Part shown: positions 46,186 to 60,520 of the stretch, one piece after another
Layout of the letters: each line of letters starts with the position of its first letter
How positions within the stretch are numbered: position 1 is the stretch's first letter
Source of the DNA: Candidatus Omnitrophota bacterium
GTDB taxonomy: Bacteria > Omnitrophota > Gorgyraeia > Gygaellales > Profunditerraquicolaceae
Assembly (NCBI GenBank): GCA_028715415.1
Contig: JAQURX010000010.1
Coordinates: 3,668 to 67,667 of the forward strand
Reading direction: 5' to 3'
DNA length: 64,000 nucleotides
Program-made: the position numbers and the translations under genes
The notes under the pieces: model-generated
What the model was told of the DNA's origin: nothing
What the model saw: the letters and a program-made list of their open reading frames with translations, nothing else
The model's database searches: none

Positions 46186-46186
46186 T

Positions 46187-47122
46187 TTATACCTCTAAAT
46201 AAATGTGCTCTGCGATTAATTCATTTGGCGTTATATCAAAAGCCGGATAATATGCCTTTGCGTTTTTTGGAGCAAGGCAAAGCCCCTGAAATTCCAATAA
46301 TTCTTTATCAGGCCTTATTTCAATCTTAATGTCATTTCCTGTTTTTGCGTGGGATGGCGGCGGGCACAACACATAAAAAGGAATATTAAAGTGTTTGGCA
46401 AGTAAAGCAATTTGAAAGGTCCCGATTTTATTAGCGATGTCACCGTTTTGGGCTAAATTATCCGCGCCGACTAATACTTTACTGATTTTTCCCTCAAACA
46501 TTACCTGCGCAACCATATTATCTGTAATGATTGTTACAGGAAATTTTGCTTTCTGCAGCTCCCATGCTGTTAAACGCGAACCCTGAAGATACGGCCTGGT
46601 TTCAGTAACAAAAAAACTTACTTTTTTATTTTCCGCCCTGCAATATTCTCCGATTAGAGGAAGCAGCCCGCTGACATTGCAATGCGTAAGGATTACATCA
46701 CCGTCATTTAGCAGTTTGCTTGCTTTCTCCGCCTGAAGTATGCGTTTATTTTTCAGGCCTTCTAAAAAACCTAAGATGCATTTCTCTAACGGCATGTTTT
46801 TTTCAGCCCAACCTAACACCATGTCAGTTAAGAATTTAAATGACAGTGTCGGACGGGTAGCATTAATCGCCTCTGCAATTTTCTTTAAATCTGGCATTAA
46901 ATCTTTCTTACCCTTACTCTTGTTGATCTCAAGCAAAAAGATGTAAAAAACCAGGATTACCTGCCCAACAGCACGCGTTTTCATCTCTTTTATTGCCCTA
47001 CATGCCTGCTTGTAAGTTGTTGCCTTGATATATTTAACTTTATGAGGCAGCAAAGTTTCATCAAGAATATAAATTGCATTGTCTTTGAAACGGATCGGCC
47101 AGAAAAGTTCTGAGAATTCCAT
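46187..47122 (-). CDS. mtnA: MtnA/eIF-2B-family sugar-phosphate isomerase (methylthioribose-1-P or 5-deoxyribose-1-P isomerase)
   Basis: 311 aa, ILTHCNVSG and VGADNLAQNGDIANKIGTFQIALLAKHFNIPFYVLCP, the conserved core of the MtnA/e2B2 family. Confidence 0.65.
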   Translation of the reverse strand: MEFSELFWPIRFKDNAIYILDETLLPHKVKYIKATTYKQACRAIKEMKTRAVGQVILVFYIFLLEINKSKGKKDLMPDLKKIAEAINATRPTLSFKFLTDMVLGWAEKNMPLEKCILGFLEGLKNKRILQAEKASKLLNDGDVILTHCNVSGLLPLIGEYCRAENKKVSFFVTETRPYLQGSRLTAWELQKAKFPVTIITDNMVAQVMFEGKISKVLVGADNLAQNGDIANKIGTFQIALLAKHFNIPFYVLCPPPSHAKTGNDIKIEIRPDKELLEFQGLCLAPKNAKAYYPAFDITPNELIAEHIYLEV

Positions 47123-47128
47123 AATTAA

Positions 47129-47596: not shown

Positions 47597-47609
47597 ACCT
47601 CTCCTCCGA

Positions 47610-48359
47610 TTATTTTCCTTCTAATTTCTTAACTGTTTCAAGAGCAATTGTAATCAAGTTCGACTCTGCCATGTAATACATCGGATTCATAAATCCCATT
47701 TCACCGGTAATAACATTATCGCTTACTGCCAAAATTGACCCGGCCTTTACTTTGTAAGTCTGGGCGATAGTTAAAAGCGTTGAAGAAACCATATCTACTG
47801 CCATAGCTCCTTCTTTACGTTTTGCTTCAACTATTTCTCTTGTTTCGCGTAAAAGCGCATCAGTTGTCCATGCTGTGCCGCGGTGTACATTTAATCCCAT
47901 GCCTTTTGCGATTTCAAACATGGTATCGGAAATCTTCTTATCCGCAACTGTCTTAAAATCTTTATCAACATAATAAGGCGTTACCCCGTCGCCGCGGATA
48001 ACTTTATCAACAATAAATAAATCTCCAACCTTAATATTCTCATCAAGCGCACCGCAAGTTCCAATACGGATAATATTCTGAATTCCGGCATTACACATAA
48101 CTTCTGAAGTAATTGATGTATCAGTTGAGAACCTTCCTCCGTTAATTCCGGTGATTTTAATCCCTTGATACATGCCGGTATACATTGTGTATTCCATAAA
48201 AGAGAAATTCTTTACCGGATTCTCAATTTTCTTCATTAAGACTTCTAACCTATCCTTTGGCCCGGGAACAATTGCATATTTCCCCACATCCTGTGGACGA
48301 AGCTGCACCATTTGTGTTAAATCCTTGCCTGTCATGTGAATCTCTTTTTGCATTTGCAT
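47610..48359 (-). CDS. PNP/UDP-family nucleoside phosphorylase (candidate MTA/5'-deoxyadenosine phosphorylase)
   Basis: About 240 aa, RIGTCGAL and MVSSTLLTIAQ blocks align with the DeoD/Udp/MtnN phosphorylase fold (RVGSCGA, EMEAAG equivalents). Confidence 0.6.
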   Translation of the reverse strand: MQMQKEIHMTGKDLTQMVQLRPQDVGKYAIVPGPKDRLEVLMKKIENPVKNFSFMEYTMYTGMYQGIKITGINGGRFSTDTSITSEVMCNAGIQNIIRIGTCGALDENIKVGDLFIVDKVIRGDGVTPYYVDKDFKTVADKKISDTMFEIAKGMGLNVHRGTAWTTDALLRETREIVEAKRKEGAMAVDMVSSTLLTIAQTYKVKAGSILAVSDNVITGEMGFMNPMYYMAESNLITIALETVKKLEGK

Positions 48360-48410: not shown

Positions 48411-48851
48411 TTACTTTTTAGCTTCGTATGGTTCAAAATGTAAATATTCTGATTCTAAAGGTGCTAACTTCGGTTCACCTACTCCAAATATTTCATATAA
48501 ACCTTGGGAGTTCTCTGGAGGCACTGTCGGATTCTTACACCAACCAACAGTAAATTTTAATATTTTAACTTGATTATTTCCACCTTTAATCCATTCTCTA
48601 ACCACAAAGGTAAAAGTTGCAAAATCTTTGTTTAATGGATCTGTTTTAAAATTATGTTCTATATTCTCAATTGTCCCCACTGCTATCCAATCAGAAACTT
48701 GCAGGCATTTTTCTTCAGAATATTTACCAGAAACATTCCCTCCGTAAATAGGAAGGTTTTTCTCACAAACCACCCCTTTATATTCGCAATCTTTGGTGGC
48801 AAAAGCATAAACTGGCAATAAGAATAGAACTACGAGTAGGTATTTTTTCAT
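48411..48851 (-). CDS. Secreted Cys-containing hypothetical protein
   Basis: 146 aa, signal peptide MKKYLLVVLFLLPVYAFA. Confidence 0.3.
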   Translation of the reverse strand: MKKYLLVVLFLLPVYAFATKDCEYKGVVCEKNLPIYGGNVSGKYSEEKCLQVSDWIAVGTIENIEHNFKTDPLNKDFATFTFVVREWIKGGNNQVKILKFTVGWCKNPTVPPENSQGLYEIFGVGEPKLAPLESEYLHFEPYEAKK

Positions 48852-48857: not shown

Positions 48858-49766
48858 TTATCTAAACATTCCTTCTAAATTTCCACCCAAGATATCAGCT
48901 TTGTCTTCCTCGCTAATATCTAAATTCTTTACCGCAGCAATACCTGCGGAGAAATCTTTTTTTGCCGGCCAGTCGCTGCCCCACAATAAATGCTTAGGCC
49001 CTAGTAAATCAAGCGCCAATAAAAAATTAGTTTTAACTTTATCACCGCTTGTATCTACATAAATATTCTTTAAAAAGTCAGTAGGATTTCCTTTTAGATC
49101 CTTTACAAAATTTATCCCGCGCAGCATTTGATAAGTTGTGTCAAACCTGTGCTGTAAAAATGGGATTGCTCCTCCAAAATGCGCAAAAATGAATTTTACC
49201 TTGGGAAAATCGCGCAATATATCAGACATTAAAAGCTTGCCAATACACATCGTAGTATCAAAAACATATTCGATTACCGGAGTAAGCAAAGGATCGTTAA
49301 CCCTTTCAAATCCAATAGGATTAACTATCTGGGAATGCACAAAAATCGGCAGATTCTGCTCCTGGGCCTGCCTATATATAGGTAAGAACATAGGGTCATC
49401 CAGATACATCCCATTGTAGCTTGAAGCAAGAGAAATTGCCCTAAACCCAAGCTCTCCGGTAACCCTGGTTAATTCATCCTGAAGATTCTTGGCACTATCA
49501 ACCGGTAATACAGCAGCACCAATAAACTTATCAGGGTAACGCTTTAAAATCTTAGCTACATTATCATTAAAGAGCCGAGCTACAAGAGAAATACTTCCTA
49601 GCTTTAAATGTGCATCAGAAGTCGGATAACTTAACACCGCTTTATCAATCCCAGCTTCCCCCATCAACTTAACTTGAGACTCGATATCCCCCCAAGCTTT
49701 AGAGAAAAAATGGGCGTTCGTTATTATCTCATCCGGCAACCAATGTGAGTGCGCGTCAATTATCAT
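48858..49766 (-). CDS. Amidohydrolase-2 (ACMSD-like) family metal-dependent hydrolase/decarboxylase
   Basis: 302 aa, MIIDAHSHW N-terminal metal-binding motif typical of PF04909. Confidence 0.65.
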   Translation of the reverse strand: MIIDAHSHWLPDEIITNAHFFSKAWGDIESQVKLMGEAGIDKAVLSYPTSDAHLKLGSISLVARLFNDNVAKILKRYPDKFIGAAVLPVDSAKNLQDELTRVTGELGFRAISLASSYNGMYLDDPMFLPIYRQAQEQNLPIFVHSQIVNPIGFERVNDPLLTPVIEYVFDTTMCIGKLLMSDILRDFPKVKFIFAHFGGAIPFLQHRFDTTYQMLRGINFVKDLKGNPTDFLKNIYVDTSGDKVKTNFLLALDLLGPKHLLWGSDWPAKKDFSAGIAAVKNLDISEEDKADILGGNLEGMFR

Positions 49767-50224
49767 TAATGCTCCGTACTCTTTAAAATTCTTTCTGTCA
49801 TTTCAATTTCATAGAGAAACTTTATTTCCGCTAAAACTTTTTTCCCGAATTCTTTTACAATTACGCTTTCAATTGCCTTTAACTTTAAAACCAGAAAATA
49901 ATACTCTGGCCTAAGCCTGGCCCCATCAAATTTTAAATTATTTCCCTCAACCAGTTTATTCTGGATATAAACTTTAAACTCATCAATATATTTCTGAGCA
50001 AGCTTTGGCTTATCCAGCTTATTTAAATCTTTTAAGATAATCTTATCAATTTCAACCTGCGTAAACTTGCGTTCAATTTTATCAAGCGCTTCTTTTGTTG
50101 TTTTGTAGAACCACACTAAGTAGCGTTTCTTTAAGTTTTTCGTATCGAGCTTGTCCACAGTTGCCTCCTGCTTTATTGTGCCATTCCTGCGCAAATTGTC
50201 ATCCCTGCGAAAGCAGGGATCCAC
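49766..50224 (-). CDS. Hypothetical protein (annotated N-terminus reads through an intergenic palindromic repeat; the real start is probably internal)
   Basis: 152-aa ORF; its first about 10 codons are encoded by the hairpin repeat at 50198-50221. Confidence 0.3.
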   Translation of the reverse strand: MDPCFRRDDNLRRNGTIKQEATVDKLDTKNLKKRYLVWFYKTTKEALDKIERKFTQVEIDKIILKDLNKLDKPKLAQKYIDEFKVYIQNKLVEGNNLKFDGARLRPEYYFLVLKLKAIESVIVKEFGKKVLAEIKFLYEIEMTERILKSTEH

Positions 50225-50267: not shown

Positions 50268-51044
50268 TCATTTATTCGGATGTTCCTGCTTAAACGGAAT
50301 TACCGGAGCTGTCCAGGGAGTCTGCTGATTGATAATCGCAATCTCCAAAGGGCAAACATTCGCGGGAACAGTTAAAGCAAATTTTACTGCATTTTCAATT
50401 GCTTCGGTAGACATAAGCCTTGAGGCATCCCCGGTAATTTCTTTTAATTTACCGGTTAAATCAGTGTCTGTTACCCCCGGCAATAAAGATGTAACCTTAA
50501 TCCCATGATCACGCACCTCCCAGAATAAACCTTTTAGGAAAGCACGCAGCCCAACTTTTAATGAACTATAGACGATAAAATTTCTTGGCAAAGGATCGCA
50601 AAGTGTTGAACCTGAAACCATATTAATAATTGCGCCTGACTTAGCCTTAATCATATCATTAATGACTAAGCGAATTAACCGCACATATCCTAAATAATTA
50701 GTGTGCGCTAATCTTTCAAAATCTTCTATCGGTTGATCCTGAAAAGGATATTGGCTGGATACACCTGCGTTATTGATCAAAATATCGATTTTGCCAAATT
50801 TCTCTTTAGTTTTATTTACTAAATTATCCAAATCCTCTAACTTTGTGACATCACAGGCGATTGGCAATACCTCAACATTATATTTCTTTGCAATCTCATC
50901 TGCAGTTTCTTTTAACGGTTCAATTTGGCGCGCGGCAATAGCAACATTTACGCCTAAACTCGCTACTGTTGAAGCTAATGCCTTGCCAATCCCGCGGCTA
51001 GCTCCTGTTACAATCGCTACCTTACCTTTTAAATTATCACTCAT
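50268..51044 (-). CDS. Short-chain dehydrogenase/reductase (SDR), candidate ketoreductase
   Basis: KVAIVTGASRGIGK Rossmann motif, NNAG, catalytic YxxxK (YSSLK); likely start at MSDNL (51044). Confidence 0.8.
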   Translation of the reverse strand: MSDNLKGKVAIVTGASRGIGKALASTVASLGVNVAIAARQIEPLKETADEIAKKYNVEVLPIACDVTKLEDLDNLVNKTKEKFGKIDILINNAGVSSQYPFQDQPIEDFERLAHTNYLGYVRLIRLVINDMIKAKSGAIINMVSGSTLCDPLPRNFIVYSSLKVGLRAFLKGLFWEVRDHGIKVTSLLPGVTDTDLTGKLKEITGDASRLMSTEAIENAVKFALTVPANVCPLEIAIINQQTPWTAPVIPFKQEHPNK

Positions 51045-52164
51045 TACTCCTCCCTGGTTTAATCGGTGAAACAAAAAGCAATATTATTAATCCCAAACAA
51101 AAAATAATAAAACCAAAAGTAAAACTTTTTTGTAAAATTATGCCGCTTAATGCAGCTCCTAAGCCACCGGATACAAAACGCACGCTGCTATTTAAACTTG
51201 CCGCCTCATTTATAGAATCCCGCGGCAGGTCAGTAAGCATAGTTGATAGGCCTGCGTGGTTAAAAGTCCAGCCCAAACCCCAGATAACCATAATTATAGC
51301 AAAGACAAAAAGCGGAAGATGGAAAATCAAAAGAAAAATACTTAAAATCATTAAAATAATTCCTAAATCCACTGTCTTTACTCTGCCAAGCTTATCTGCA
51401 AGGTCTCCTCCGATAACCTCACCAAAAACTCCGCTTAAGCTTGTCAAAGTAATGAGCATACTGATTAAGAATTGCCCAAAACAAAACTTGGTTGAGAAAT
51501 AAACCCCTAACCACTGCTGAACCCCATGGTAAATTAAGCTGATAAAGAAGATATAAGTAAAAATTGCGAATATCTTTTTATCTCTTAAAACATCAAGGTA
51601 ATTTACCTTAAATTTAGTTAGATCACTTTTAAAACTAGGCAAATAAAAAAACATTACAATGCTCAAAATAAATCCAATTATCGCAGGAAGTATAAAGATA
51701 AGTCGCCAATAAATTATTCCGCTTAAAAATAACCCGGCAAGCGAAGCGACAAAGGTTGCGCCAAAAAATATTCCTACAAATTTTCCGCGTTTATCCGGCT
51801 CCATGTGCTTTGCTATTAAAACAAGCCCGAGGGGGATAACGGAAGCGCCGAAAAAACCCATTAAGAATCTTGCTAAGAAAAGAGTTTTAATATTTGCAGC
51901 AAAACCTGCTAAAAGATTAGCAACAGAGAAGAAAAAGATGGAAATCAACTCTACTTTTCTTGCATCTACCGCCCTGATTAATGGCCCGTATAAAAGTGCA
52001 GCTAAGCCATAAGGCAGCATATACATCCAGATAATCTTACCAGCTATAAACTGAGAAAGAACAAATTCATGGGCAATTGAAGGCACTATAGCTGCGCTTG
52101 CAGCGACATTAAACGAAAGAACAGCACCTTCTAAACAAAGGATGATAAAAGTAAATTTCTTCAC
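51037..52164 (-). CDS. MFS transporter (candidate exporter of the cluster product)
   Basis: 375 aa, 12 TM, MFS loop signature. Confidence 0.7.
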   Translation of the reverse strand: MKKFTFIILCLEGAVLSFNVAASAAIVPSIAHEFVLSQFIAGKIIWMYMLPYGLAALLYGPLIRAVDARKVELISIFFFSVANLLAGFAANIKTLFLARFLMGFFGASVIPLGLVLIAKHMEPDKRGKFVGIFFGATFVASLAGLFLSGIIYWRLIFILPAIIGFILSIVMFFYLPSFKSDLTKFKVNYLDVLRDKKIFAIFTYIFFISLIYHGVQQWLGVYFSTKFCFGQFLISMLITLTSLSGVFGEVIGGDLADKLGRVKTVDLGIILMILSIFLLIFHLPLFVFAIIMVIWGLGWTFNHAGLSTMLTDLPRDSINEAASLNSSVRFVSGGLGAALSGIILQKSFTFGFIIFCLGLIILLFVSPIKPGRSNE

Positions 52165-52604
52165 TTACTACTAGCTTCTCGCTCAATTACCTTTTTAAAT
52201 ATCTCTAAGTTTTCTTTGGAATGCTTATTAATAAACCCTTCCACCTGCTCGTCGTTAAACTTAGCTTTATCATCCATCTCAAAGTGTTGAATCCAAGTCA
52301 ACTCTATCCCCTGAGGTTTCGGCGTATAAAGCCAGATAATCTTCATGTATTTAAAAGGGAATTTCGGCTCATGCCTTTCGGCATAGGCAAAATACTTATC
52401 TTTAAAAAGCAGCCTCCAGGATACCCAGGATTTATCTTCATCATCAGTTAAACGGAAGGTAATTTTGTTATCTTTCTTCTCAACTACCTCTGCCTTTTTA
52501 TATTCTCCGCCGAATAGCTCAGTCCAGCGCGGGATATCATTAGAAATATCAAAAATTAATTCATAAGGTGCGTTAATAATTATGGAATTACAAGTATGCC
52601 CCAT
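52161..52604 (-). CDS. SRPBCC-superfamily protein (polyketide cyclase/aromatase TcmN-like fold)
   Basis: 147 aa, size and hydrophobic-pocket pattern of Polyketide_cyc2/START-like proteins. Confidence 0.5.
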   Translation of the reverse strand: MGHTCNSIIINAPYELIFDISNDIPRWTELFGGEYKKAEVVEKKDNKITFRLTDDEDKSWVSWRLLFKDKYFAYAERHEPKFPFKYMKIIWLYTPKPQGIELTWIQHFEMDDKAKFNDEQVEGFINKHSKENLEIFKKVIEREASSK

Positions 52605-52619: not shown

Positions 52620-52937
52620 TTACTCTTTCCCGAATAAGCTTAATAAAATTGCCAAGTCTTTCTTTGCGCTTAATGAATGAGGCGCATTTTTTGGCATAAA
52701 AATAAAAACCCCCGGCTTCATTTTAATCTTCTTTCCATTTAAAACAAAAATCCCTTCTCCTTTTAACACGGTAACTGCTGCTTCGCGGGTAGATGTATGC
52801 TCGGAGATATCGCTTCCTTTTGCTAAACACATCAAAGTATAATTAGAAGTGGGAGTCTTGACCAAAACTTTGCTGAAAATCCCTTCTTTGGGGAATTCCA
52901 TCATTTTTTCTAACTCTTTGAATATAGAATTTATCAT
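52620..52937 (-). CDS. Cupin-2 domain protein (TcmJ-like)
   Basis: 105 aa, two cupin motifs (G(X)5H..E...G and PxxxxH: ISEHTSTREAAVTVLKGEG...PKNAPHS). Confidence 0.6.
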   Translation of the reverse strand: MINSIFKELEKMMEFPKEGIFSKVLVKTPTSNYTLMCLAKGSDISEHTSTREAAVTVLKGEGIFVLNGKKIKMKPGVFIFMPKNAPHSLSAKKDLAILLSLFGKE

Positions 52938-52938: not shown

Positions 52939-53736
52939 TTATATAATTGCTACAACTCTTGACCAGGCAGCTCCTGTATTTTTAATCTTTACCGGGAAAC
53001 AAATGATTTTAAATCCGGAGGAAGGCAGCTTTTCTAAATTTGCTAACCTTTCAATATGGATAAATTCTCTCTTGCGGCCGTAAAAATGCGCTGGATACAA
53101 ATACTTGATGTCTTTCTTCTCTAAGAATTCCTTAAGCATAAATCTATAAGGCCTATCTATCCCCATTGTATCTACCCCGAAGATTTTAATACCTCTATCT
53201 AAGAGATAATCAATCGCAGAAATATCAACCCCGGGATAGTCTGAGAAATATTTCGGCCCACCATATAACTTATCCGCCCCCGTATGCAGAATTACAATAT
53301 CCAATGGCTTTAATTTATAATTTACCTTTGCAAGGCCTGCTTCAATATCAGAAGCAGCAATAGTTTCGTTTGGTTTTTTATGAGTTAAATCAAGTTTTAC
53401 CCCATCTTGATAACAATATTCAAGGGGGATTTCTTCTGCAGTTTTTGCTGGGCGATTCTCTGAACGAGAACCGTAATGAAATGAATAATCAAGGTGAGTG
53501 CCGATATGAACCGGAGAATGCACAACTTCTAAAGAAAGAAACTCTTCATCCGGAAGGTCTTCTTTTTTTAAGATGCGTTTCCCTAAAGCATATTTAATCT
53601 TGCCTAAAAGAGTCTTGCCCATGATAACGCGGTTAAACTTCTCTACACCTGCCGAGTGAGTTACGCGTTCAATAGCTACTTTGTGTACTTCAAAAGCTTT
53701 ATCGTCTATAGGAAGGCTTAAGTCAATTATTTGCAT
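52939..53736 (-). CDS. Putative cyclase family protein (PF04199, kynurenine-formamidase-like fold)
   Basis: 265 aa with HSPVHIGTHLDYSFHYG (HxGTHxDxPxH) metal-binding motif. Confidence 0.65.
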   Translation of the reverse strand: MQIIDLSLPIDDKAFEVHKVAIERVTHSAGVEKFNRVIMGKTLLGKIKYALGKRILKKEDLPDEEFLSLEVVHSPVHIGTHLDYSFHYGSRSENRPAKTAEEIPLEYCYQDGVKLDLTHKKPNETIAASDIEAGLAKVNYKLKPLDIVILHTGADKLYGGPKYFSDYPGVDISAIDYLLDRGIKIFGVDTMGIDRPYRFMLKEFLEKKDIKYLYPAHFYGRKREFIHIERLANLEKLPSSGFKIICFPVKIKNTGAAWSRVVAII

Positions 53737-53758: not shown

Positions 53759-54004
53759 TTACGCCTTGATCAGTTTAGACTCAACCACTTTCACAATATC
53801 ATTTATAGTTGAAGATTTTGTGATTTCCTTAGGGCTTAATTTTGTACTGAATTCTTTTTCAAGCGCAATAACCGTTTCTACCATTTCCGTTGAGTCAACG
53901 CCAATACTCTCTAATAAACTTAAATCATCTCTTAATTCTTCTGGCCTTACTTTTAAGAGTTTTACAAGGCAGTCTTTAATTTTTTGTTTTGTATCCATTA
54001 TCAT
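53759..54004 (-). CDS. Acyl carrier protein
   Basis: About 80 aa from MIMDTKQK; phosphopantetheine-attachment context LESIGVDSTEMVETV (DS motif) in a four-helix-sized protein. Confidence 0.7.
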   Translation of the reverse strand: MIMDTKQKIKDCLVKLLKVRPEELRDDLSLLESIGVDSTEMVETVIALEKEFSTKLSPKEITKSSTINDIVKVVESKLIKA

Positions 54005-54008: not shown

Positions 54009-55469
54009 TTATATCTGCACTTCACCCTTTGTCGCTGCTGCTTCCCATTTATTAATTCCATTCATAACATCCTGAAAGCAAAGCTTAGCAAGCGGGTCAA
54101 AATTACTTTCCATAATCCGGTTGATTCTTCCGGGTTTTGAGAAAAATTCACGCATGCACCATGAACCAAGGCGCCCTAAATCTTCTGTAGTTAAATGGTC
54201 GGTTGGAATAACCGGATGCAGAAAATCCCAAGTACTGAAATCAACCTTCTTTGGATCCATCCAATTCTTCTTTAAAGCAATCCTCCACATTGGTGAATTC
54301 GGAGCAGGCGTAACGTAACCCACCCACATAATATCCGGATCCACTGCGTCGGTAAATTCAAACCGCTTCTTAATAATCTCCTCAGTATCATAATCAAAAC
54401 CCATCATAATATCGGCAACTATCGCAATATCCTGCTTACGCAAAATTTCAATCGTCTTTTGAATCTGGTCTATTGTGATACCTTTTGCTATTCTTTTAAG
54501 CTCTGACTGCGTTGTAACCTCTATACCAAATACGCCCATAAACAACCCTGTCTCTTTCATTAAAGGAAGGACTGATTCGCAATTAACCCAGTCAATTGCA
54601 CGCCCTAAAGATACCCATTTAATTGGGTTATTCGCTGCTTTTTTAAGCTCGCAGAATTTCTGCACTCTCTTGGGATCCACGTTAAAATTGTCATCCTGGA
54701 TAACTACAACCTTAACCCCGTATTTTTTATGCAAAAGATTAAGCTCTTCCATGACTCTTTCCGGGCTCTTTGCGCGCCACTTTAAGAAATCAGACGGTGA
54801 ACGCGGGTCAAACTGGTCCCATTCATAACAAAATGTGCACGCTGAAGGACAGCCTCGGGAAGTCACCATATCCACAAACGGCTTCCAATAAGTATGCCCC
54901 ACATATTTATCCATTGGAAATAAATCATAGGCGGGAAGTGGTAATTTATCCAAATCTTCCATGAGCGGCTTATGCGGGCCCATTACAATCTCACCATCAA
55001 TACGAGAAGTTACACCGCCCACATCTTTTAAACTTTTCTTTTTATCTATTGCCTCAATTAAATCTCCGAAAGATTCCTCTTCTCCCATTACTACAAAATC
55101 AACTGCCGGATTCTCTTCTAAAGTTGGTACTGGCATGGCCGAATACCACAAGCCGCCAAAGATTATCTTTGTTTTAGGTAATGCCTTTTTAATTTTTTGT
55201 GCTGCCTCTTTAAAATGCCTTAATACGCCGTATCCGCCATAACCATGCAACTGTTCACCCATTACAACAACATCAGGATTCTTCTCTTTAACCTGTTCAA
55301 CTAATTCATCCATGGGTGTTTGAAATGCTTTCCCGTCGATAACTGCAACATCGGTATAGCCTCTCTCGCGGACATATGCTGCCCAATGCGCATAGAGCTG
55401 ATTTGGGGACCTGTGGATTCCGTGCGTTGCCCATGCGCCTACCTTAGGCATTACAAATAGAATTTTCAT
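54009..55469 (-). CDS. Cobalamin-binding (class B) radical SAM enzyme
   Basis: N-terminal B12-binding Rossmann-like domain (MKILFVMPK...), radical SAM CPSACTFC (CxxxCxxC); 486 aa. Confidence 0.8.
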   Translation of the reverse strand: MKILFVMPKVGAWATHGIHRSPNQLYAHWAAYVRERGYTDVAVIDGKAFQTPMDELVEQVKEKNPDVVVMGEQLHGYGGYGVLRHFKEAAQKIKKALPKTKIIFGGLWYSAMPVPTLEENPAVDFVVMGEEESFGDLIEAIDKKKSLKDVGGVTSRIDGEIVMGPHKPLMEDLDKLPLPAYDLFPMDKYVGHTYWKPFVDMVTSRGCPSACTFCYEWDQFDPRSPSDFLKWRAKSPERVMEELNLLHKKYGVKVVVIQDDNFNVDPKRVQKFCELKKAANNPIKWVSLGRAIDWVNCESVLPLMKETGLFMGVFGIEVTTQSELKRIAKGITIDQIQKTIEILRKQDIAIVADIMMGFDYDTEEIIKKRFEFTDAVDPDIMWVGYVTPAPNSPMWRIALKKNWMDPKKVDFSTWDFLHPVIPTDHLTTEDLGRLGSWCMREFFSKPGRINRIMESNFDPLAKLCFQDVMNGINKWEAAATKGEVQI

Positions 55470-56704
55470 TACTTATCTCCTTTCTCAACTATCAATACTG
55501 AGTTTATTCCGCCTCTACCGCGGGAAATTATCATCGCCTTATTTATATTATGCGTTCTTGCTTCCTTTTGAACAAAATTTAAACCATCAACAGCAGGATT
55601 CTCTAAATTTGTTGTTGGAGGAACTAACTTATTTTCCATTGCAAGAAGTGTAATAATCATGTCTATTGCCCCGCTTGCTCCAAGTAAATTTCCGAAGCTT
55701 GACTTTGGGCAGCTTACGGGAATCTTTGCCGCATGCGCTCCAAATACACTTTTTATTGCAGCAATCTCAGAATTATCCCAGATATCCACAGCCAAACCAT
55801 CTAAACTGATGTAATCAATCCCCTCTGGATTAACCTTTGCATCAGCTAACGCTATATTAATCGCCCGGGCTAACTGTTTACCGTCGCGATCGGGATTAAT
55901 CCTGTCACGCCCGTCGCATGAAGTCCCATAACCGCTGATAAACCCTAAAACATTCACTCCTCTTTGCTTGGCCCGCTCAACACTTTCCATCACAACTATA
56001 CCAGCACCCTCTCCAATAACAAATCCGTCGCGTTTTTTATCAAACGGCCTATATGCTGATTCCGGATGTTCATTATTTCTTGAAAGCGCGCCGTATGTAT
56101 TACAGCAAAGCAGCGAATAAGGAGTAACGGGGGCTTCCATGCCTCCGGCTAAAATCATATTAAGTTTATTTTTGCTTAAAACTTTGCGCGCATAGCCTAA
56201 TGCCATTAAAGATCCGGCCCTATCAGCAACAACAGTTTTAGAAAATCCCTTTATCCCATAATAAATTGAAACCTGTCCTTGGGGTGCTGCGGGAAACCAT
56301 GCCGAAGCCATATAAGGAGAAACTCCCTCGCGGCCTTCAATATACAAATCGCGTAATTCTGTTTCAGCATAAAGCCAGCCGCCGATAGCGTTACCTAAGA
56401 ATATCCCAACCAATTTTGGATCTTCGTTTTTTATATCGATCTTCGCATCAAGAAGAGCTAACTCAGAAGCAATCAAGGCCATGTGAGAAAATGCGTCTAT
56501 CTTTTTAAGAAGCCGTTCTGAAACATGGCTGTATTTTTCCAAATCATCAATCTGTCCTGCAATATGCGAAGGGTACCTCGAAGCATCAAAACGCGTAATA
56601 TTCTTTATAAAGTTTCTTCCTGCCTTAACATTTGCCCAAAACTGCCGCTTTCCTATCCCGGAAGGAGCCACAACACCTATACCGGTTATTGCAATCTTAT
56701 CCAT
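55469..56704 (-). CDS. Ketosynthase-like protein lacking the Cys/His/His triad (chain-length-factor/KS-beta-like)
   Basis: Thiolase-fold KS N- and C-domains, but active-site positions read TVVADRAGSLMAL (no Cys), TSCDGRD and ISLDGLAVD (no His). Overlaps the upstream KS gene by 8 nt. Confidence 0.8.
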   Translation of the reverse strand: MDKIAITGIGVVAPSGIGKRQFWANVKAGRNFIKNITRFDASRYPSHIAGQIDDLEKYSHVSERLLKKIDAFSHMALIASELALLDAKIDIKNEDPKLVGIFLGNAIGGWLYAETELRDLYIEGREGVSPYMASAWFPAAPQGQVSIYYGIKGFSKTVVADRAGSLMALGYARKVLSKNKLNMILAGGMEAPVTPYSLLCCNTYGALSRNNEHPESAYRPFDKKRDGFVIGEGAGIVVMESVERAKQRGVNVLGFISGYGTSCDGRDRINPDRDGKQLARAINIALADAKVNPEGIDYISLDGLAVDIWDNSEIAAIKSVFGAHAAKIPVSCPKSSFGNLLGASGAIDMIITLLAMENKLVPPTTNLENPAVDGLNFVQKEARTHNINKAMIISRGRGGINSVLIVEKGDK

Positions 56705-57959
56705 TGTATCTCCTTAAAATTAAAGACGAATGAATCCCAGAAAAACCGCTACTTGTTTTAAGTATTGTGTTTACTTTTTTAGCCCTTGCAACATTAGGTA
56801 TATAATCCAAGTCGCATAAGGGGTCTTTTTCTTCCTGATTTATCGTAGGAGGAAGAATATTCTTCTCAAAAATCATACAACATATGGTAAATTCCACTGC
56901 ATTTGCCGCAGCCAAAGGATGTCCGATCATTGATTTAAGAGAACTAATCGGAAGTTTATAAGCATAATCACCGAAAATTGTTTTATATGCATTGGTTTCA
57001 AAGATATCATTCATACGAGTTGAGGAACCATGTGCATTGATATAATCTATTTCACTGGGCTTCATCCCAGCATCTTTAAATGCAAGATCAATGCAGCTGC
57101 TCATAGCCCCTCCATCCGAAGGAAGGTCTGTCATATGAAAAGCATTGCAGCTTGTGCCAAAACCCATTACTTCTGCATAAATACGCGCATTTCTTTTTAG
57201 GGCATGATTTAATTCTTCCAAAACCAATATCCCAGCGCCTTCAGAAAGGACAAACCCGTTACGCTTATTATCAAACGGCCGAGAAGCTTTTTCCGGATTC
57301 TCGTTATTAACTGCCAAAACATTAACTACATCAAAAGCGCCAAATGTAATTGGCGTAAGGGGCGCTTCTGCAGCGCCACAAATCATGATATCCTGCTCTC
57401 CATCCTGAATAGTCTCAAGGCCAAAACCCATTGAGTCTGTCCCGGCAGTACACCCTGTAGATAGAGTATTACAAATTCCTTTTAATCCATACCGGGCGCT
57501 AATCTCGATTGAGGGAGTATTAAACATCGCGGCATCATACAAATCAGGGCGGACCCTTGAAGGATCAATGGGATTCTTACCGTCGTCGGTAACAAGGGCA
57601 AATTCCTCTTCCATGTATTTTGTCCCACAGATAGCATTAGCAAGGCAAACCCCGACTCTTTCCGGATCTTCCTTAGAAAAATCAAGGTTACTATCTTTTA
57701 TCGCCATGTCCCCTGCTGTTACTCCAAACTGCACATATCTATCCATGCGCACTGCTTCATCATGGGTAAGCCCCAGTTTAAAAGGATCAAAATCCCTTGC
57801 CTCGGCGGCAATCTTTGTATTAAAAACAGAGACATCAAAACTATCCACTAACCTAACTCCAGACTTTCCTCCCGACATCCCTTTCCAGGCATTTTCCTTA
57901 CCAATACCATTGGGAGAAATCACACCGATACCCGTAATAACAACTCTACGCTTAGACAT
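56697..57959 (-). CDS. Beta-ketoacyl synthase (KS-alpha/FabF-like, catalytically intact)
   Basis: Active-site Cys in LSTGCTAGTDSMG; His in AFHMTD and NAHGSSTRMND; KSMIGHPLAAA C-terminal motif. Confidence 0.85.
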   Translation of the reverse strand: MSKRRVVITGIGVISPNGIGKENAWKGMSGGKSGVRLVDSFDVSVFNTKIAAEARDFDPFKLGLTHDEAVRMDRYVQFGVTAGDMAIKDSNLDFSKEDPERVGVCLANAICGTKYMEEEFALVTDDGKNPIDPSRVRPDLYDAAMFNTPSIEISARYGLKGICNTLSTGCTAGTDSMGFGLETIQDGEQDIMICGAAEAPLTPITFGAFDVVNVLAVNNENPEKASRPFDNKRNGFVLSEGAGILVLEELNHALKRNARIYAEVMGFGTSCNAFHMTDLPSDGGAMSSCIDLAFKDAGMKPSEIDYINAHGSSTRMNDIFETNAYKTIFGDYAYKLPISSLKSMIGHPLAAANAVEFTICCMIFEKNILPPTINQEEKDPLCDLDYIPNVARAKKVNTILKTSSGFSGIHSSLILRRYNG

Positions 57960-58565
57960 CTATTTGTTCTCCTTATTATCTTCTATCCTTTTAACCTTAA
58001 ACACTATATTCCCACCATCAGGGCAAGTTACTGTATCTATTGAGTCAGGGTCTTGCATAAAGAAAAACTTCGCTCCAAAGTTAAGCGCAAATAGCGCAGG
58101 AAAAGCACAATGAAAAGCAGCCCCACAAAACCCGGGGATACATTTAAGGCCTGTTGTTTCCCATTTATCACCTATCTTATAACCGAATGTGCATTTTCCT
58201 TTTGCCTGCACAACTTCGATAACCATCTTCTTCGGATTCGGACCTTTAAAACTCGGGTCTTTCGCTACTGTTTCGACCTTCCCATCCTTATCTAGAATCT
58301 CAGCTTTAAATTCTAGCTTCCCCCCGTCGGGACAAGTAACCAAAAGAGACCTCTGATTATCACGAAAAGGGAATTTCGCCCCGAAACTCAATGCATAAAT
58401 TACCGGGAACAAAGCATGCGCCAGCCCTAAACAAAAAAATTTCGGCGGATGCGTAAAATCTTCCAAAATAAGCTCATCACCTTTTTTATACCCATGATAA
58501 CACTCCCCGTAAACATTCATAACCGTGAGTTTTAATCTTGGAAATGGAGTATTGACTTCAGGCAT
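57960..58565 (-). CDS. Tandem-duplicated Cys/His-rich domain protein, unknown function
   Basis: Two homologous about 95-aa halves: C..GYK.GD....C.G.AH/FH..FP...AL.FGAKF.F......VTCPDGG...FK. Possible metal- or redox-site protein. Confidence 0.4.
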   Translation of the reverse strand: MPEVNTPFPRLKLTVMNVYGECYHGYKKGDELILEDFTHPPKFFCLGLAHALFPVIYALSFGAKFPFRDNQRSLLVTCPDGGKLEFKAEILDKDGKVETVAKDPSFKGPNPKKMVIEVVQAKGKCTFGYKIGDKWETTGLKCIPGFCGAAFHCAFPALFALNFGAKFFFMQDPDSIDTVTCPDGGNIVFKVKRIEDNKENK

Positions 58566-58566: not shown

Positions 58567-59571
58567 TTAACTAAATAATCCTTTCGTATTGTTTATTAAC
58601 TCTTCCTTGGTGAAAAATCTCTTTGTTTTCTCAACTTGATGCACCATTTCTACTAATTTTGAATTTAGTGGGGCGCGTAAACTATTAGTTTTTGCTAAAG
58701 CGACAAATTCACCATTGATATAATCAACCTCTGAAAGCTTGCCTCTTTTAATACTTTGTAATATTGAGCCGTATAAAGGCTCCTTGCTTAAATTAGCCAT
58801 TATTCCTGAGAAAATCTTCGCTGCCTCCGTTGTCGGCAATGAAATTAATTTAGTAAGCCGCTCCAGTGGAAAGTCCGGTAAGGAAGCCAAATTAATCCTT
58901 GAGCCAGATACTATTTTATGGCCTTCCTTCCATATGCCGATACTTATACTGCTTATCTCCGGGCTGGCAAAACACTCTTGCATGCTTAAGCCTAAAATCC
59001 CCGGGATACAATTATTGGCGTTAACGAAAATCTTTAAATATTTCATTGCTTTAATATCGTCTGTGGCTACTACCGGGAAAATATCGCCAAGCAAAACCTT
59101 TACTTTAGAAACAAGCTCGCTGTTTTTAATAAACGCGCTCCCGATAATCCAACTTCCTTCAAAATTATGCACGACCGTGCCTGCTTCTAAATTAGTCGAG
59201 CCAAACATTACTATGCTAGAAATGATTTTTTCTCCCGAAAGAATCCTTGCGGCGATATCTTCTGCTTGAACGCCGTTTTGAGTAATAACGATTACTGAAT
59301 TAGCGATAAATTCAAGGTTTTCTTTTATCGCACAGCTTAAATCCTGAGTTTTTGTAGCAAAGATTGCTATGTCCGGGCAAAAATTAAGCCTCGTATCGGT
59401 GTCAATTTTTAAATCAAACTCACCCCTTACCCCGCAAATCTTTAAGCCTTTATTTCTGATTGCCTCTACCGCCTCTTTATGGCCGACGAGAAATACATTT
59501 TTGTTTTTTGACTTTAAATACCCTGCCACTAAAGCGCCTATTGCCCCGGCGCCAATAACTGCTATTTTCAC
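58567..59571 (-). CDS. ApbA/PanE-family 2-dehydropantoate-reductase-like NAD(P)H oxidoreductase
   Basis: MKIAVIGAGAIGALVAGYL Rossmann N-terminus, ApbA N- and C-domain layout, 334 aa. Confidence 0.7.
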   Translation of the reverse strand: MKIAVIGAGAIGALVAGYLKSKNKNVFLVGHKEAVEAIRNKGLKICGVRGEFDLKIDTDTRLNFCPDIAIFATKTQDLSCAIKENLEFIANSVIVITQNGVQAEDIAARILSGEKIISSIVMFGSTNLEAGTVVHNFEGSWIIGSAFIKNSELVSKVKVLLGDIFPVVATDDIKAMKYLKIFVNANNCIPGILGLSMQECFASPEISSISIGIWKEGHKIVSGSRINLASLPDFPLERLTKLISLPTTEAAKIFSGIMANLSKEPLYGSILQSIKRGKLSEVDYINGEFVALAKTNSLRAPLNSKLVEMVHQVEKTKRFFTKEELINNTKGLFS

Positions 59572-59870
59572 TTCAAGTTCTCCCCATTCTTTCTTGCAAG
59601 CGGCTGGTTATTATTCTTTGGGAATCCGAATTTTTTGTAATCAAATCCTGTTTGTTCCAAAAGCCTAATCATCATACTGTAGAATGGCGAAGGCACATCA
59701 GAAAAAAAAGCACCAACTACATCCTGCTCTTCAACTAATGCAGATTTTCTCTTAACAGCATTGTTTTCCGCTTCCTTGACTACGGCCTCTTCGGTAATAT
59801 GACGATGAAAGACTGGTATCTTAGAAATCATAAGATTAAGCTTTTCTTGAGTTGTTTTATCCCAATTCAT
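59568..59870 (-). CDS. Hypothetical protein, first gene of the biosynthetic operon
   Basis: 100 aa; 4-nt overlap with the reductase gene. Confidence 0.3.
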   Translation of the reverse strand: MNWDKTTQEKLNLMISKIPVFHRHITEEAVVKEAENNAVKRKSALVEEQDVVGAFFSDVPSPFYSMMIRLLEQTGFDYKKFGFPKNNNQPLARKNGENLK

Positions 59871-60012
59871 AATCTAACTCCCTATATTGGTTAAAGTTAA
59901 CCCCTTGTTTTAAAATATAGTAAAATTTTACTAATCAAATTTTAGTATAGTATACCTTTAAATCAATTAAAGTCAAGAAGAAATTGAAGAAAATTTACTC
60001 TGGAAGTAAAAC

Positions 60013-60169: not shown

Positions 60170-60520
60170 ATGGAGAACTTAGGTAAATCAGAAAAAGATA
60201 ATAGGATTTTTGAAAGATTTGCTGCAAATTTCCCTCTTAAGTACCTTGACCTTGATTATAATAAAGAAGGCAGTGCAAAAACATTGGATATCAGCGCTAA
60301 TGGATTGGGGATAACTACGGATGAATGCCTACCTAAACACTCCAACCTTGAATTATGGCTACAGATACCCGATATGGGACAGCCGCTTTATGCCAGAGCA
60401 AAGGTAATCTGGTCGGATAAGTCAGGAACAAATGCGTGTAGGGCGGGAATTAAACTGGAAAAAGCTGACTTTCTAGGGCTTGCGCGAGTTCTTAGAATTA
60501 TCGGGACAAGAAGAAACTAA
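60170..60520 (+). CDS. PilZ-domain (c-di-GMP-binding) protein
   Basis: 116 aa; RIFER (RxxxR) and DISANGLGI (DxSxxG) PilZ signatures. Confidence 0.75.
   Translation: MENLGKSEKDNRIFERFAANFPLKYLDLDYNKEGSAKTLDISANGLGITTDECLPKHSNLELWLQIPDMGQPLYARAKVIWSDKSGTNACRAGIKLEKADFLGLARVLRIIGTRRN

Follow-up and report, generated by a model that had tools for sequence, protein, structure and literature searches.

Organisation of the operon

Within the window, meaning the whole 64-kb stretch of DNA that was analysed, an operon of approximately 18 kb runs from 59870 to 42110 on a single strand (-), with neighbouring genes overlapping or separated by gaps of 51 nt or less. A candidate Sigma-70-like promoter (TTGACT-16-TATACT, 59949..59976, -) lies about 80 nt 5' of the first gene, identified only through a consensus scan in which promoter and terminator matches were no more numerous than in shuffled sequence. 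The first gene (59568..59870, -) encodes a small DUF2621-like protein whose PF11084 match is sub-threshold here (22.2 bits) and clear in the related locus L092. It is followed by an ApbA/PanE-family NAD(P)H oxidoreductase (58567..59571, -; PF02558 and PF08546) and a Cys-rich, tandem double TIGR04076 protein (57960..58565, -; NCBIfam TIGR04076, 100.7 bits over two stretches), for which a PDB sequence search yielded no relative.

The next two genes encode a ketosynthase pair. KS-alpha (56697..57959, -), an aromatic type II polyketide synthase (PKS) ketosynthase, matches AntD (6smo_B, 377.7 bits) and the actinorhodin KS (1tqy_A, 376.9 bits) in the PDB, compared to at most 354.7 bits for FabF, and the aligned residues of its Cys/His/His triad are intact. 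KS-beta, the CLF-like protein (55469..56704, -), contains the Pfam ketoacyl-synt N and C domains, and alignment with FabF (3o04) shows its triad positions changed from Cys to Arg, His to Asp and His to Asn. It carries Arg where a canonical CLF has Gln in place of the Cys, and it scores higher against FabF (286 bits) than against the act CLF (1tqy_B, 259 bits). By these residues KS-beta is a catalytically dead partner, and the KS pair described upstream of the radical SAM gene in an earlier note on this DNA holds as an intact-triad KS-alpha with a triad-less KS-beta.

The radical SAM gene (54009..55469, -) is an open reading frame of 486 aa with an ATG start, as given by the ORF list and its translation, and AAAGGAGA, a Shine-Dalgarno-like sequence, lies 8 nt 5' of this ATG. 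At the junction gtaATG (TAATG), the KS-beta stop and the radical SAM start share one base, which is the 1-nt overlap with the CLF-like gene that had been described. The radical SAM stop is followed by GGAG and then by the start of the acyl carrier protein (ACP) gene (53759..53998, -; PF00550, 41.8 bits). With GGAG located 6 nt before the second ATG, a start at 53998 is likelier than the ORF-list start at 54061, and after this revision the ACP gene, as previously stated, lies directly 3' of the radical SAM gene with a gap of 10 nt. The resulting 79-aa protein, with orthologues of 77-82 aa, contains the phosphopantetheine-attachment serine of its GVDS motif in GVDSTEM.

Downstream of the ACP gene are a PF04199 'cyclase' family protein (52939..53736, -; 97.5 bits in Pfam) that is kept in all related operons, an optional Cupin_2 protein (52620..52937, -; Pfam, present in 10 fetched loci), an SRPBCC polyketide cyclase/aromatase-like protein (52161..52604, -; PF10604 and PF03364 above cut-off), an optional MFS transporter (51037..52164, -; PF07690) and an SDR/FabG-like ketoreductase (50268..51074, -; PF00106, PF08659 KR and NCBIfam 3-ketoacyl-ACP reductase models), the true start of which is probably an internal Met near 51044. 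A conserved 152-aa protein (49766..50224, -) has no family match and is present in 55 loci, and the Amidohydro_2 protein that follows (48858..49766, -; PF04909, 103 bits) is judging by its family, a candidate hydrolase or non-oxidative decarboxylase of aromatic acids. Pfam searches revealed neither FabZ- nor FabI-type genes in the operon, which also has no oxygenase gene.

The remainder of the operon encodes a sugar-phosphate module. The PNP_UDP_1 nucleoside phosphorylase (47610..48359, -; PF01048) is Udp/DeoD-like, with NCBIfam scores that are all below cut-off (uridine phosphorylase 121 bits, DeoD 99, HpnG 50.6), and is not MTAP-type (TIGR01694, 21.6 bits against a cut-off of 274.85). The MtnA-family sugar-1-phosphate isomerase (46187..47122, -) passes TIGR00524 (199.5 bits against 185.85) and falls below the equivalog TIGR00512 (230.4 bits against 279). 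Separated from it by 1 nt is a class II aldolase (45184..46185, -; PF00596, 129 bits) with a C-terminal SCP2-like domain (PF02036, 22.3 bits against 21.3), a domain also called in many of the aldolase orthologues and in a Methanoperedenaceae locus. In its AF2 model, the N-terminal domain resembles FucA and DrdA and is accompanied by an alpha/beta domain at residues 216-327; since the N-terminal domain swamped the Foldseek search with the whole model, the SCP2 call rests on Pfam and secondary-structure topology. An NAD(P)-dependent aldehyde dehydrogenase (ALDH; 43685..45181, -; PF00171, 558 bits) is found in 16 of the 19 loci with room for it. The last gene (42110..43669, -) encodes an AMP-forming acyl-CoA/acyl-ACP ligase, whose best match is the long-chain fatty acid CoA ligase model NF004837 (403 bits, cut-off 476) and whose orthologues stand at the head of the operon in L091 and L093 and at its tail in L004 and L095. 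The operon thus consists of an AntD/Act-like type II PKS and a chain of phosphorylase, MtnA-like isomerase, aldolase-SCP2, ALDH and ligase.

The radical SAM protein and its relatives

The protein encoded at 54009..55469 contains a B12-binding domain at residues 30-133 (PF02310, 43.8 bits against a cut-off of 32.1) and a Radical_SAM domain at residues 201-371 (PF04055, 74.3 bits against 29.5), both above their Pfam cut-offs. Its AF2 model (pLDDT 85.6) matches the partial TIM-barrel fold of radical SAM structures with a probability of 1.00, and profile and fold agree on the class B architecture of a B12-binding domain plus a radical SAM core that had been proposed. The CPSACTFC motif corresponds to C207-x3-C211-x2-C214 (CX3CX2C), with 3/3 cysteines invariant in an alignment of 10 sequences with identity down to 37%. 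There are 945 homologues at E<=1e-10, a number far beyond chance. Judged from sequence, this is a genuine, intact gene for a radical SAM enzyme of the cobalamin type, and cobalamin binding is predicted. No cobalamin genes and no cobalamin riboswitch were detected in the 64-kb window, a result with little bearing on the whole genome.

In order to place the protein among curated families, NCBIfam models were used, each judged at its own cut-off, and the cut-off of no NCBIfam family was reached. The top matches were BchE (TIGR02026, 207.7 bits against an equivalog cut-off of 481.35) and HpnJ (TIGR03471, 155.6 bits against 577.6), both aligning over almost the full length of the protein. As unrelated class B proteins of the outgroup score higher against the BchE model (P0131 and P0133, 279 and 318 bits), this top match is uninformative, and orthology to BchE or HpnJ was rejected on scores of less than half the cut-offs and on these outgroup values. 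No bch or chl genes occur in the window or the fetched loci, and no hpn (hopanoid) genes were seen around the radical SAM gene. The earlier note had regarded a housekeeping enzyme as best homologue as the outcome that would count against it; BchE and HpnJ are indeed the best curated matches, yet they lie far below cut-off with no bch or hopanoid genes nearby, which neither refutes nor supports its view.

The comparison with class B methylases bears out the note in part: the fold is shared, but no methylase family cut-off was reached, with PhpK at 108 bits against 600, HpnR at 98.9 against 650, the RiPP C-methylase model at 86 against 282, KedN5 at 75.8 against 700 and the TsrM-type model at 18.5 against 500. 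The AprD4 family model NF033070 (76.5 bits against 500) covers only residues 164-434, and the ladderane-type TIGR04072 reaches 71.8 bits against 360. By sequence, the best PDB match is AprD4 (E 4e-16, 19% identity), which is also the best by fold (TM 0.68). The model resembles AprD4, MgmA, TokK, OxsB, TsrM and CysS at identities of 14-19%; all six structures match alike (TM 0.62-0.69), and fold comparison was discarded as a guide to the chemistry. A 2026 review finds no structural feature that separates methylases from other class B enzymes, and neither the sequence nor the fold tells whether this enzyme is a methylase (PMC12931638).

In a library of representatives at 50% identity, only four full-length clusters were recovered at 349-544 bits, followed by generic class B proteins from about 260 bits. 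On these scores, the protein founds an orthologous family of its own, previously undescribed and sharply bounded. The family consists of two paralogous clades, with the window protein in clade I, clade II enzymes in loci L090 and L095, and both clades within one operon of L093; many related operons contain two paralogous radical SAM enzymes. A second radical SAM match at the start of L032 was set aside as unrelated (23% identity). A sharply bounded family in a fixed, information-rich gene context is tractable for experiment.

The operon, with about 17 core genes and the radical SAM enzyme as its most conserved protein, was found in 462 species-level genomes, and the best 80 of these 462 are almost all from uncultured Omnitrophota. 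Protein identity is 85-93% among the 80 Omnitrophota species genomes that match best, and Thermodesulfobacteriota, Candidatus Velamenicoccus and Candidatus Methanoperedenaceae carry related operons. The upstream gene order is identical in 58 of 58 loci; the phosphorylase, isomerase and aldolase genes lie downstream in 39 of the 44 loci with room for them, and the DUF2621-like gene is present in every locus with room (58/58). Both this conserved order and the close packing support a tight operon of radical SAM enzyme, KS pair and ACP. In L096, the DUF2621-like protein is fused to the radical SAM C-terminus, ApbA is fused to AFOR and TIGR04076 domains, and an Aminotran_4 gene occupies the usual place of the phosphorylase. 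The radical SAM, small protein and ApbA genes always share an operon and are contiguous in L005 and L092. In L090/L091 and L095, genes for the ligase, radical SAM enzyme, phosphorylase, isomerase, aldolase-SCP2 and ALDH are grouped with MMPL/DUF1329 export genes, with no KS gene in the DNA up to the contig or flank ends, and in L094 and L092 radical SAM and PKS genes are present with no phosphorylase trio in the available DNA. Neighbouring genes in the hosts, one of which is a Methanoperedenaceae archaeon, include CODH/ACS, hydrogenase maturation and Moco genes, and the hosts appear to be strict anaerobes. One related cluster is adjoined by an Xdh/Hcr-type molybdenum hydroxylase.

The placement between KS-beta and ACP had been taken to indicate an ACP-bound substrate. 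Orthologues or paralogues of the radical SAM gene, however, stand at the head of the operon in L092, L005 and L093, after the SDR gene in L096 and L093, and after the Amidohydro_2 gene in L094 and L092. Because the position of the gene is clade-specific, its location next to KS-beta and ACP carries no substrate information, and this line of evidence was rejected given the head or tail placements in L005, L092, L093, L094 and L096. Carrier-linked substrates for class B enzymes have a precedent in CysS and TokK, the solved structures of which hold pantetheinylated substrates. Overall, the observation made in the earlier note is confirmed, and its interpretation holds only in part.

Candidate chemistries of the enzyme

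Among methylation, O2-independent oxidation or cyclisation, and adenosylation, the favoured explanation is hydrogen-abstracting tailoring with 5'-deoxyadenosine disposal inside the operon. In this explanation, in which we place about even confidence, the class B-type radical SAM protein would be a core enzyme for tailoring in a pathway that makes aromatic type II polyketides independently of O2. What was observed is the architecture and fold of the protein, its place in the operon, its conservation and the fusions of genes, and each chemical step below is inferred. The CX3CX2C [4Fe-4S] cluster would, as expected from family membership, cleave SAM reductively, and the 5'-deoxyadenosyl radical would take a hydrogen from a non-nucleophilic position of a polyketide or primer made by KS-alpha, KS-beta, ACP, KR and the cyclases, with the N-terminal cobalamin domain completing the reaction. 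Methyl transfer from methylcobalamin would be the single most likely outcome by precedent, and an oxidation or the making of a C-C bond, in place of an oxygenase step, would be nearly as likely. The DUF2621-like protein is a probable physical partner of the radical SAM enzyme because it is fused to it in L096. Phosphorylase, MtnA-like isomerase, class II aldolase, ALDH and ligase would clear the inhibitory 5'-deoxyadenosine and return it as DHAP and an activated C2 acid. The combination of phosphorylase, MtnA and class II aldolase is a published route of 5'-deoxyadenosine disposal (PMC6079011), and as the trio accompanies either radical SAM clade (clade I in the window, clade II in L090 and L095), a 5'-deoxyadenosine by-product common to both clades fits.

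Several points weigh against the favoured explanation. Nothing separates methylation from the other chemistries, and there is no obvious need for a radical methylase, because the carbons of polyketides are as a rule nucleophiles that conventional SAM methyltransferases methylate. Cobalamin use is no more than predicted, given that AprD4, the best PDB match, binds no cobalamin. As for salvage, a pure 5-deoxyribulose-1-phosphate enzyme would not need an SCP2-like lipid-binding domain, the phosphorylase is Udp/DeoD-like, and L096 has Aminotran_4 in the phosphorylase place; in addition, no biosynthetic operon that contains a salvage pathway of its own is known to us.

A sub-case of the favoured explanation, and not an exclusive rival to it, is a BchE-like O2-independent oxidase or cyclase, which we place on the unlikely side and which would consume several SAM and use cobalamin to convert a methylene to a ketone or hydroxyl, taking the oxygen from water. 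Conversion of an anthrone to a quinone or closure of a ring C-C bond are examples, and would give anaerobes a quinone-type aromatic polyketide. BchE is known to replace the oxygenase AcsF. The apparently strict anaerobic hosts, an operon with no oxygenase gene, the closeness of KS-alpha to an anthraquinone synthase, the paired paralogous radical SAM enzymes of many operons and the one Xdh/Hcr-type molybdenum hydroxylase are all consistent with such a reaction, and the use of several SAM per turnover would explain why 5'-deoxyadenosine is disposed of in the operon. Precedent exists in BchE, a radical SAM enzyme with cobalamin that carries out a six-electron oxidation and forms a C-C bond without O2 (PMC13598231), although the BchE match here is generic (outgroups at 279-318 bits against 207.7) and quinone formation is only surmised. 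AprD4, as the best solved relative (E 4e-16, TM 0.68), points elsewhere, to a radical dehydratase with a vestigial B12-like domain, in which a hydroxyl adjacent to a radical centre would be eliminated and the NAD(P)H-dependent ApbA would reduce the ketone; the net effect would be deoxygenation of a diol or hydroxyketone, possibly of a sugar or nucleoside entering the phosphorylase, isomerase and aldolase chain. The shared operon of the radical SAM, small protein and ApbA genes, contiguous in L005 and L092, agrees with this, but an identity of 19%, a family score of 76.5 against 500 limited to residues 164-434, an N-terminal domain above the Pfam B12-binding cut-off, and the fusion of ApbA in L096 to AFOR and TIGR04076 rather than to the radical SAM enzyme make a dehydratase very unlikely.

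The SCP2 domain, fused to the aldolase in all clades including the archaeal locus, would find a use if the 5'-deoxyadenosyl radical were itself added to a hydrophobic substrate, at a double bond or a ring, to build a PKS primer. Such adenosylation is known from HpnH, which acts on diploptene, and from MqnE, which acts on its enolpyruvyl substrate. In the operon, the phosphorylase would then remove adenine, the MtnA-like isomerase would make a ketose-1-phosphate, the SCP2-guided aldolase would free DHAP and R-CH2-CHO, and ALDH and ligase would provide an activated acid for extension by KS-alpha and KS-beta. ALDH and a long-chain-like acyl-CoA ligase do come after the aldolase, the phosphorylase bears a weak resemblance to futalosine hydrolase and, at 50.6 bits, to HpnG, and the fluoroacetate route proceeds in the same manner from a 5'-X-5'-deoxyadenosine to X-CH2-CHO and X-CH2-COOH (cited in PMC6079011). 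Loci L090/L091 and L095 group the radical SAM gene with the trio, ligase and export genes with no KS in the available DNA, but the contigs or flanks of L090 and L095 end, making the absence of a PKS there uncertain, and L094 and L092 show the opposite, pairing the radical SAM gene with PKS genes and no trio in the available DNA. The occurrence of the trio with both clades, and of both clades in L093, is accounted for more simply by a common by-product, and there is no HpnH or MqnE family similarity among the NCBIfam matches. To our knowledge, adenosylating radical SAM enzymes lack a B12 domain. We consider this adenosylating route unlikely. In its fullest form, which is quite unlikely, the radical SAM enzyme and its DUF2621-like partner would adenosylate an unactivated hydrophobic substrate, and the ribose, trimmed to a C2 carboxyl handle, would prime the aromatic type II PKS. 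If true, a lipid or aryl tail would thereby be welded to a polyketide head group without O2, perhaps yielding an electron shuttle or redox lipid that resembles a quinone, and the pathway would be common to Omnitrophota, sulfate-reducer relatives and Methanoperedenaceae archaea.

The operon encodes an aromatic type II PKS in apparently strict anaerobes, where the usual oxygenase tailoring is impossible. The identity of 85-93% and the archaeal versions suggest that the product serves the physiology of its hosts, for example as an electron carrier, cofactor, pigment or lipid, and is not a sporadic antibiotic. The operon encodes a full sugar-phosphate pathway of the 5'-deoxyadenosine type, in which the aldolase has a lipid-binding domain; this pathway would be either the first dedicated by-product salvage in a biosynthetic operon or a new use of the adenosyl group of SAM as a building block, and either outcome would be relevant to radical SAM enzymologists and natural-product chemists.

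Comparison with known systems

Class B radical SAM enzymes comprise more than 80,000 sequences, few with a known reaction (PMC13598231). CysS and TokK/ThnK share with the window protein an N-terminal Rossmann B12 domain, a radical SAM barrel and a C-terminal helical domain, and TokK and CysS superpose on its model at TM 0.66-0.69 with an identity of only 17-19%. They differ in their carbapenem/NRPS context, as opposed to the type II PKS of the window, in which methyl transfer by the radical SAM enzyme is only a candidate reaction. BchE and HpnJ are class B enzymes that do not methylate and whose chemistry is anaerobic or independent of O2, but the window gene has no tetrapyrrole or hopanoid genes near it. 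The pairing of dehydratase and reductase in AprD4/AprD3 recalls the conserved NAD(P)H reductase ApbA of the operon; AprD4, however, uses no cobalamin and acts on an unrelated substrate class, whereas the N-terminal domain of the window protein passes the B12-binding model.

Among polyketide systems, Photorhabdus AntDEF and the Streptomyces actinorhodin PKS are the closest, with KS-alpha scoring 377 bits to both, and the window likewise encodes an inactive partner KS, an ACP, a KR, an SRPBCC aromatase-like protein and a PF04199 cyclase. Those clusters have no counterpart of its radical SAM, ApbA, TIGR04076 and sugar-phosphate genes, and the hosts of the window operon are anaerobes. The anammox 'ladderane' Cluster I (amxFabF2/amxFabFmut/amxACP) also combines a heterodimer of a KS and a dead KS with a dedicated ACP and radical SAM enzymes in anaerobes. 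KS-alpha scores only 289 bits against 9s5h_B, presumably the structure of the amxFabF heterodimer, compared to 377 to AntD and Act; the ladderane cluster has FabZ where the window has aromatic cyclases, and no phosphorylase or aldolase is mentioned for it. A ladderane-type cluster was rejected on the TIGR04072 score (71.8 against 360), KS-alpha similarity and gene content. Omnitrophota 'ladderane' clusters have appeared, unexplained, in surveys (PMC9902471), and may or may not be the window operon. A literature search yielded no description of the operon, only a catalogue naming Candidatus Omnitrophica among KS-CLF phyla, and turned up no characterised type II PKS in which a class B radical SAM enzyme takes part. 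The earlier statement that such an enzyme is uncommon in type II PKS-like pathways is borne out, the nearest published case being CoeI, a HemN-like class C radical SAM methylase of the coelulatin type II PKS, which makes an anthraquinone (PMC9714029). CoeI tailors an aromatic type II polyketide, the role proposed for the window enzyme too, but as a class C enzyme it uses two SAM, has no cobalamin domain and belongs to an actinomycete-type soil-metagenome cluster; the two architectures are unrelated.

The sugar-phosphate module most closely resembles the DHAP shunt for 5-deoxyribose salvage (MtnP or DrdK, MtnA/DrdI, Ald2/DrdA), whose three enzyme types recur here in unchanged order; the window aldolase domain resembles DrdA (6btd) and FucA, and the fluoroacetate pathway has an ALDH downstream, as here. 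The window module differs from the DHAP shunt in a phosphorylase that is Udp/DeoD-like and not MTAP-like, in an aldolase with an extra, atypical SCP2 domain, and in its location within a PKS operon, with which it travels across phyla.

Reading frame, domains and operon context

The radical SAM gene at 54009..55469 (minus strand) represents a new family of class B radical SAM enzymes and lies in a type II PKS operon of anaerobes that is itself new and widely conserved. According to the ORF list, it begins with an ATG start codon and encodes 486 aa. Pfam searches yielded a B12-binding domain (PF02310, residues 30-133, 43.8 bits against a cut-off of 32.1) and a Radical_SAM domain (PF04055, residues 201-371, 74.3 bits against 29.5), and the CPSACTFC motif corresponds to C207-x3-C211-x2-C214, with all three cysteines invariant in an alignment extending down to 37% identity. 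An AF2 model (pLDDT 85.6, pTM 0.87) displays the class B layout and matches AprD4, MgmA, TokK, OxsB, TsrM and CysS at TM 0.62-0.69 with 14-19% identity. The protein is a radical SAM superfamily member with class B architecture, as the earlier note had proposed from these same two domains, and is predicted to bind cobalamin.

The gene shares a single base with the KS-beta stop codon in TAATG, with AAAGGAGA 5′ of this junction, and downstream of its own stop codon come GGAG and the start of the ACP gene, confirming both the one-nucleotide overlap with the CLF-like gene and the directly downstream ACP noted previously. The ACP start is most likely 53998 rather than the 54061 of the ORF list; translation from 53998 gives 79 aa, and orthologues have 77-82 aa.

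From 59870 down to 42110, the ORF list shows only minus-strand genes, neighbours overlapping or lying apart by 51 nt at most. In order, they encode a small DUF2621-like protein, an ApbA/PanE reductase, a tandem TIGR04076 protein, KS-alpha, KS-beta, the radical SAM enzyme, the ACP, a PF04199 cyclase, a cupin, an SRPBCC cyclase-like protein, an MFS transporter, an SDR/ketoreductase, a 152-aa protein without family assignment, an Amidohydro_2 protein, a small lipoprotein-like ORF, a PNP_UDP_1 phosphorylase, a DUF6794 protein, an MtnA-family isomerase, a class II aldolase with C-terminal SCP2, an aldehyde dehydrogenase (ALDH) and an AMP-forming acyl ligase. KS-alpha retains its Cys/His/His triad and scores 377.7 bits with the anthraquinone synthase AntD (6smo_B) and 376.9 bits with the actinorhodin KS, both above any FabF. 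In KS-beta the triad residues are replaced by Arg, Asp and Asn; it is therefore a dead partner, though not a canonical Gln-type CLF. The previously described KS pair stands.

The tandem TIGR04076 protein (57960-58565, minus strand) ranks with the best-conserved proteins of the operon, at a median identity of 84%. Cys/His positions recur in it, both halves carry a TCPDGG motif, and a search for a solved relative found none; it may bind a metal or cluster. Flanking the phosphorylase gene, the 146-aa lipoprotein-like ORF (48411-48851, minus strand) and the 155-aa DUF6794 protein (47129-47596, minus strand) have signal-peptide-like N-termini and counterparts in none of the 89 compared loci, and are thus specific to the window genome.

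Outside the operon, the window holds housekeeping genes (LeuRS, RlmN, SecA, MurJ, LptE, Lnt, RF, UvrC, GS-III, Amt), and neither cobalamin genes nor a riboswitch were found within its 64 kb. Between minus-strand housekeeping genes, 39459-40404 (plus strand) carries tRNA-Ala(GGC), tRNA-Leu(CAA) and an ORF with a LAGLIDADG_3 homing-endonuclease-like domain, whose listed 5′ part, overlapping the tRNAs, is probably spurious. A 1507-aa protein (29176-33699, minus strand) has a GNAT acetyltransferase domain at about residues 1120-1210 as its sole recognisable domain, with no family match elsewhere along its length. A stand-alone PilZ-domain gene adjoins the operon (60170-60520, plus strand), and a second one is located within a few kb of the operon in the Omnitrophota locus L096 (20362-20712), which may be coincidence.

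Family assignment and distribution

Against curated models, the enzyme scored 207.7 bits for BchE (cut-off 481), 155.6 for HpnJ (578), 76.5 for AprD4 (500) and 71.8 for the ladderane-type TIGR04072 (360), with methylase families at 119 bits at most; it thus reached no curated family. Orthology with BchE or HpnJ was rejected on these scores, and because the BchE model gives 191-318 bits to unrelated class B proteins used as outgroups, BchE as top match is uninformative. In a representative library of 1.84 billion sequences, only four full-length clusters matched at 349-544 bits, followed by generic class B proteins at about 260 bits. In a distance tree the family forms two clades: clade I, comprising the window protein and a sister group at 47-56% identity, and clade II, at 36-44% identity with the window protein, which includes Candidatus Velamenicoccus archaeovorus, a Deferribacterota MAG and a Candidatus Methanoperedenaceae genome. 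The enzyme is outside every characterised class B family. As no structural feature sets non-methylating class B members apart from methylases (2026 review, PMC12931638), neither sequence nor fold names its reaction.

Homologues at 73-92% identity are numerous, the named ones being Candidatus Omnitrophota/Omnitrophica, and the window aldolase is 100% identical to a protein of an NCBI Omnitrophica MAG. When one genome per species was scanned, relatives turned up in 462 genomes; among the 80 best, almost all are Omnitrophota. The five upstream genes keep the same order in all 58 loci with enough upstream DNA, and of 44 loci whose downstream DNA was long enough, 39 carry the full set of phosphorylase, isomerase and aldolase, 4 carry part of it and 1 carries none, with ALDH next in 16 of 19. 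This operon is also present in a Thermodesulfobacteriota genome, where MarR and MMPL precede it and DUF1329/DUF1302 come after it, as well as in a Pseudomonadota-labelled MAG. The radical SAM enzyme is the most conserved operon protein in nearly all genomes, with a median identity of 90.5% compared to 84% for KS-alpha and 79% for KS-beta, a gap slightly inflated because loci were ranked on this protein.

Variant operons

Among the compared loci, a gene of the clade I sister group stands at the operon head in L005 and L092, directly 5′ of the small-protein gene and ApbA; another paralogue follows Amidohydro_2 in L092 and L094; L093 combines a clade II gene at the head, adjoining the phosphorylase, with a clade I gene at the tail; and in L096 (CP070797) the gene follows the SDR. 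Given this variation, placement between KS-beta and the ACP is no evidence for an ACP-bound substrate, which the earlier note had argued from the wedged position; its observations hold, and its interpretation is supported in part.

L096 has the small DUF2621-like protein joined to the C-terminus of the radical SAM enzyme, and a 1165-aa protein combines aldehyde:ferredoxin oxidoreductase, ApbA and the TIGR04076 tandem; these Rosetta-stone fusions (576-4073 and 10001-11728) mark two physical modules. The same operon has an Aminotran_4 gene in the phosphorylase's normal place.

The sugar-phosphate module tracks the radical SAM gene of either clade. L090/L091 read ligase, methyltransferase, radical SAM (II), phosphorylase, isomerase, aldolase-SCP2, ALDH, MMPL, DUF1329, and L095 (Methanoperedenaceae, LR991655) reads MMPL, radical SAM (II), phosphorylase, isomerase, aldolase-SCP2, ALDH, DUF1329/DUF1302, ligases, with no KS within 10 kb. 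As L093, of the same clade as L090, has PKS genes directly after, versions lacking a PKS are not proven. L095 is an archaeal genome (2.5-Mb record) carrying the module with MMPL, DUF1329 and DUF1302; the last two are usually tied to Gram-negative outer membranes, which suggests that the whole set was transferred from bacteria. In L092 (12370-21446), genes for a three-subunit Xdh/4-hydroxybenzoyl-CoA-reductase-type molybdenum enzyme and for Moco biosynthesis lie directly after the operon; the locus carries a pair of paralogous radical SAM genes, and the stretch covered lacks the phosphorylase trio.

Proposed chemistry and known systems

In the reading we favour, to which we give an even chance, the enzyme would abstract hydrogen to tailor an aromatic polyketide without O2, and the by-product would be removed and recycled by enzymes of the same operon. 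By precedent, methyl transfer would be the most likely single chemistry; oxygenase-replacing oxidation or cyclisation would be nearly as likely, since the hosts are anaerobes, the PKS is anthraquinone-synthase-like and radical methylation is not required at ordinary polyketide carbons. The window has a complete chain of phosphorylase, MtnA-like isomerase, class II aldolase, ALDH and ligase (42110-48359, minus strand), predicted to be co-transcribed with the PKS, and as the module accompanies either clade, the simplest reading is that it handles a product common to both, 5′-deoxyadenosine. Phosphorylase, MtnA and class II aldolase form the published route for disposal of 5′-deoxyadenosine (PMC6079011), and by work cited there the same logic plus an ALDH yields fluoroacetate from 5′-fluoro-5′-deoxyadenosine.

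Three features do not fit pure salvage and leave room for an unlikely alternative, in which the enzyme would adenosylate a hydrophobic substrate, in the manner of HpnH and MqnE, and the ribose would be cut back by the module to a two-carbon acid serving as PKS primer: the aldolase always has an SCP2-like lipid-binding domain at its C-terminus, for which an aldolase of plain 5-deoxyribose salvage would have no need; the phosphorylase is Udp/DeoD-like rather than MTAP-like; and the operon ligase resembles a long-chain acyl ligase. An AprD4/AprD3-like dehydratase-reductase pair of the radical SAM enzyme and ApbA is a minor possibility beside the favoured hydrogen-abstracting role.

No published description of the operon was found in the literature searched. 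A catalogue places Candidatus Omnitrophica among phyla with KS-CLF pairs, and a metagenome study reported unexplained 'ladderane' clusters in Omnitrophota (PMC9902471). The closest systems include CysS and TokK, class B enzymes acting on pantetheinyl substrates; BchE/HpnJ and AprD4; the Ant and Act type II PKSs; the anammox cluster, with its KS, dead KS, ACP and radical SAM enzyme; and CoeI, which acts in an anthraquinone pathway but is a class C, not class B, enzyme (PMC9714029).
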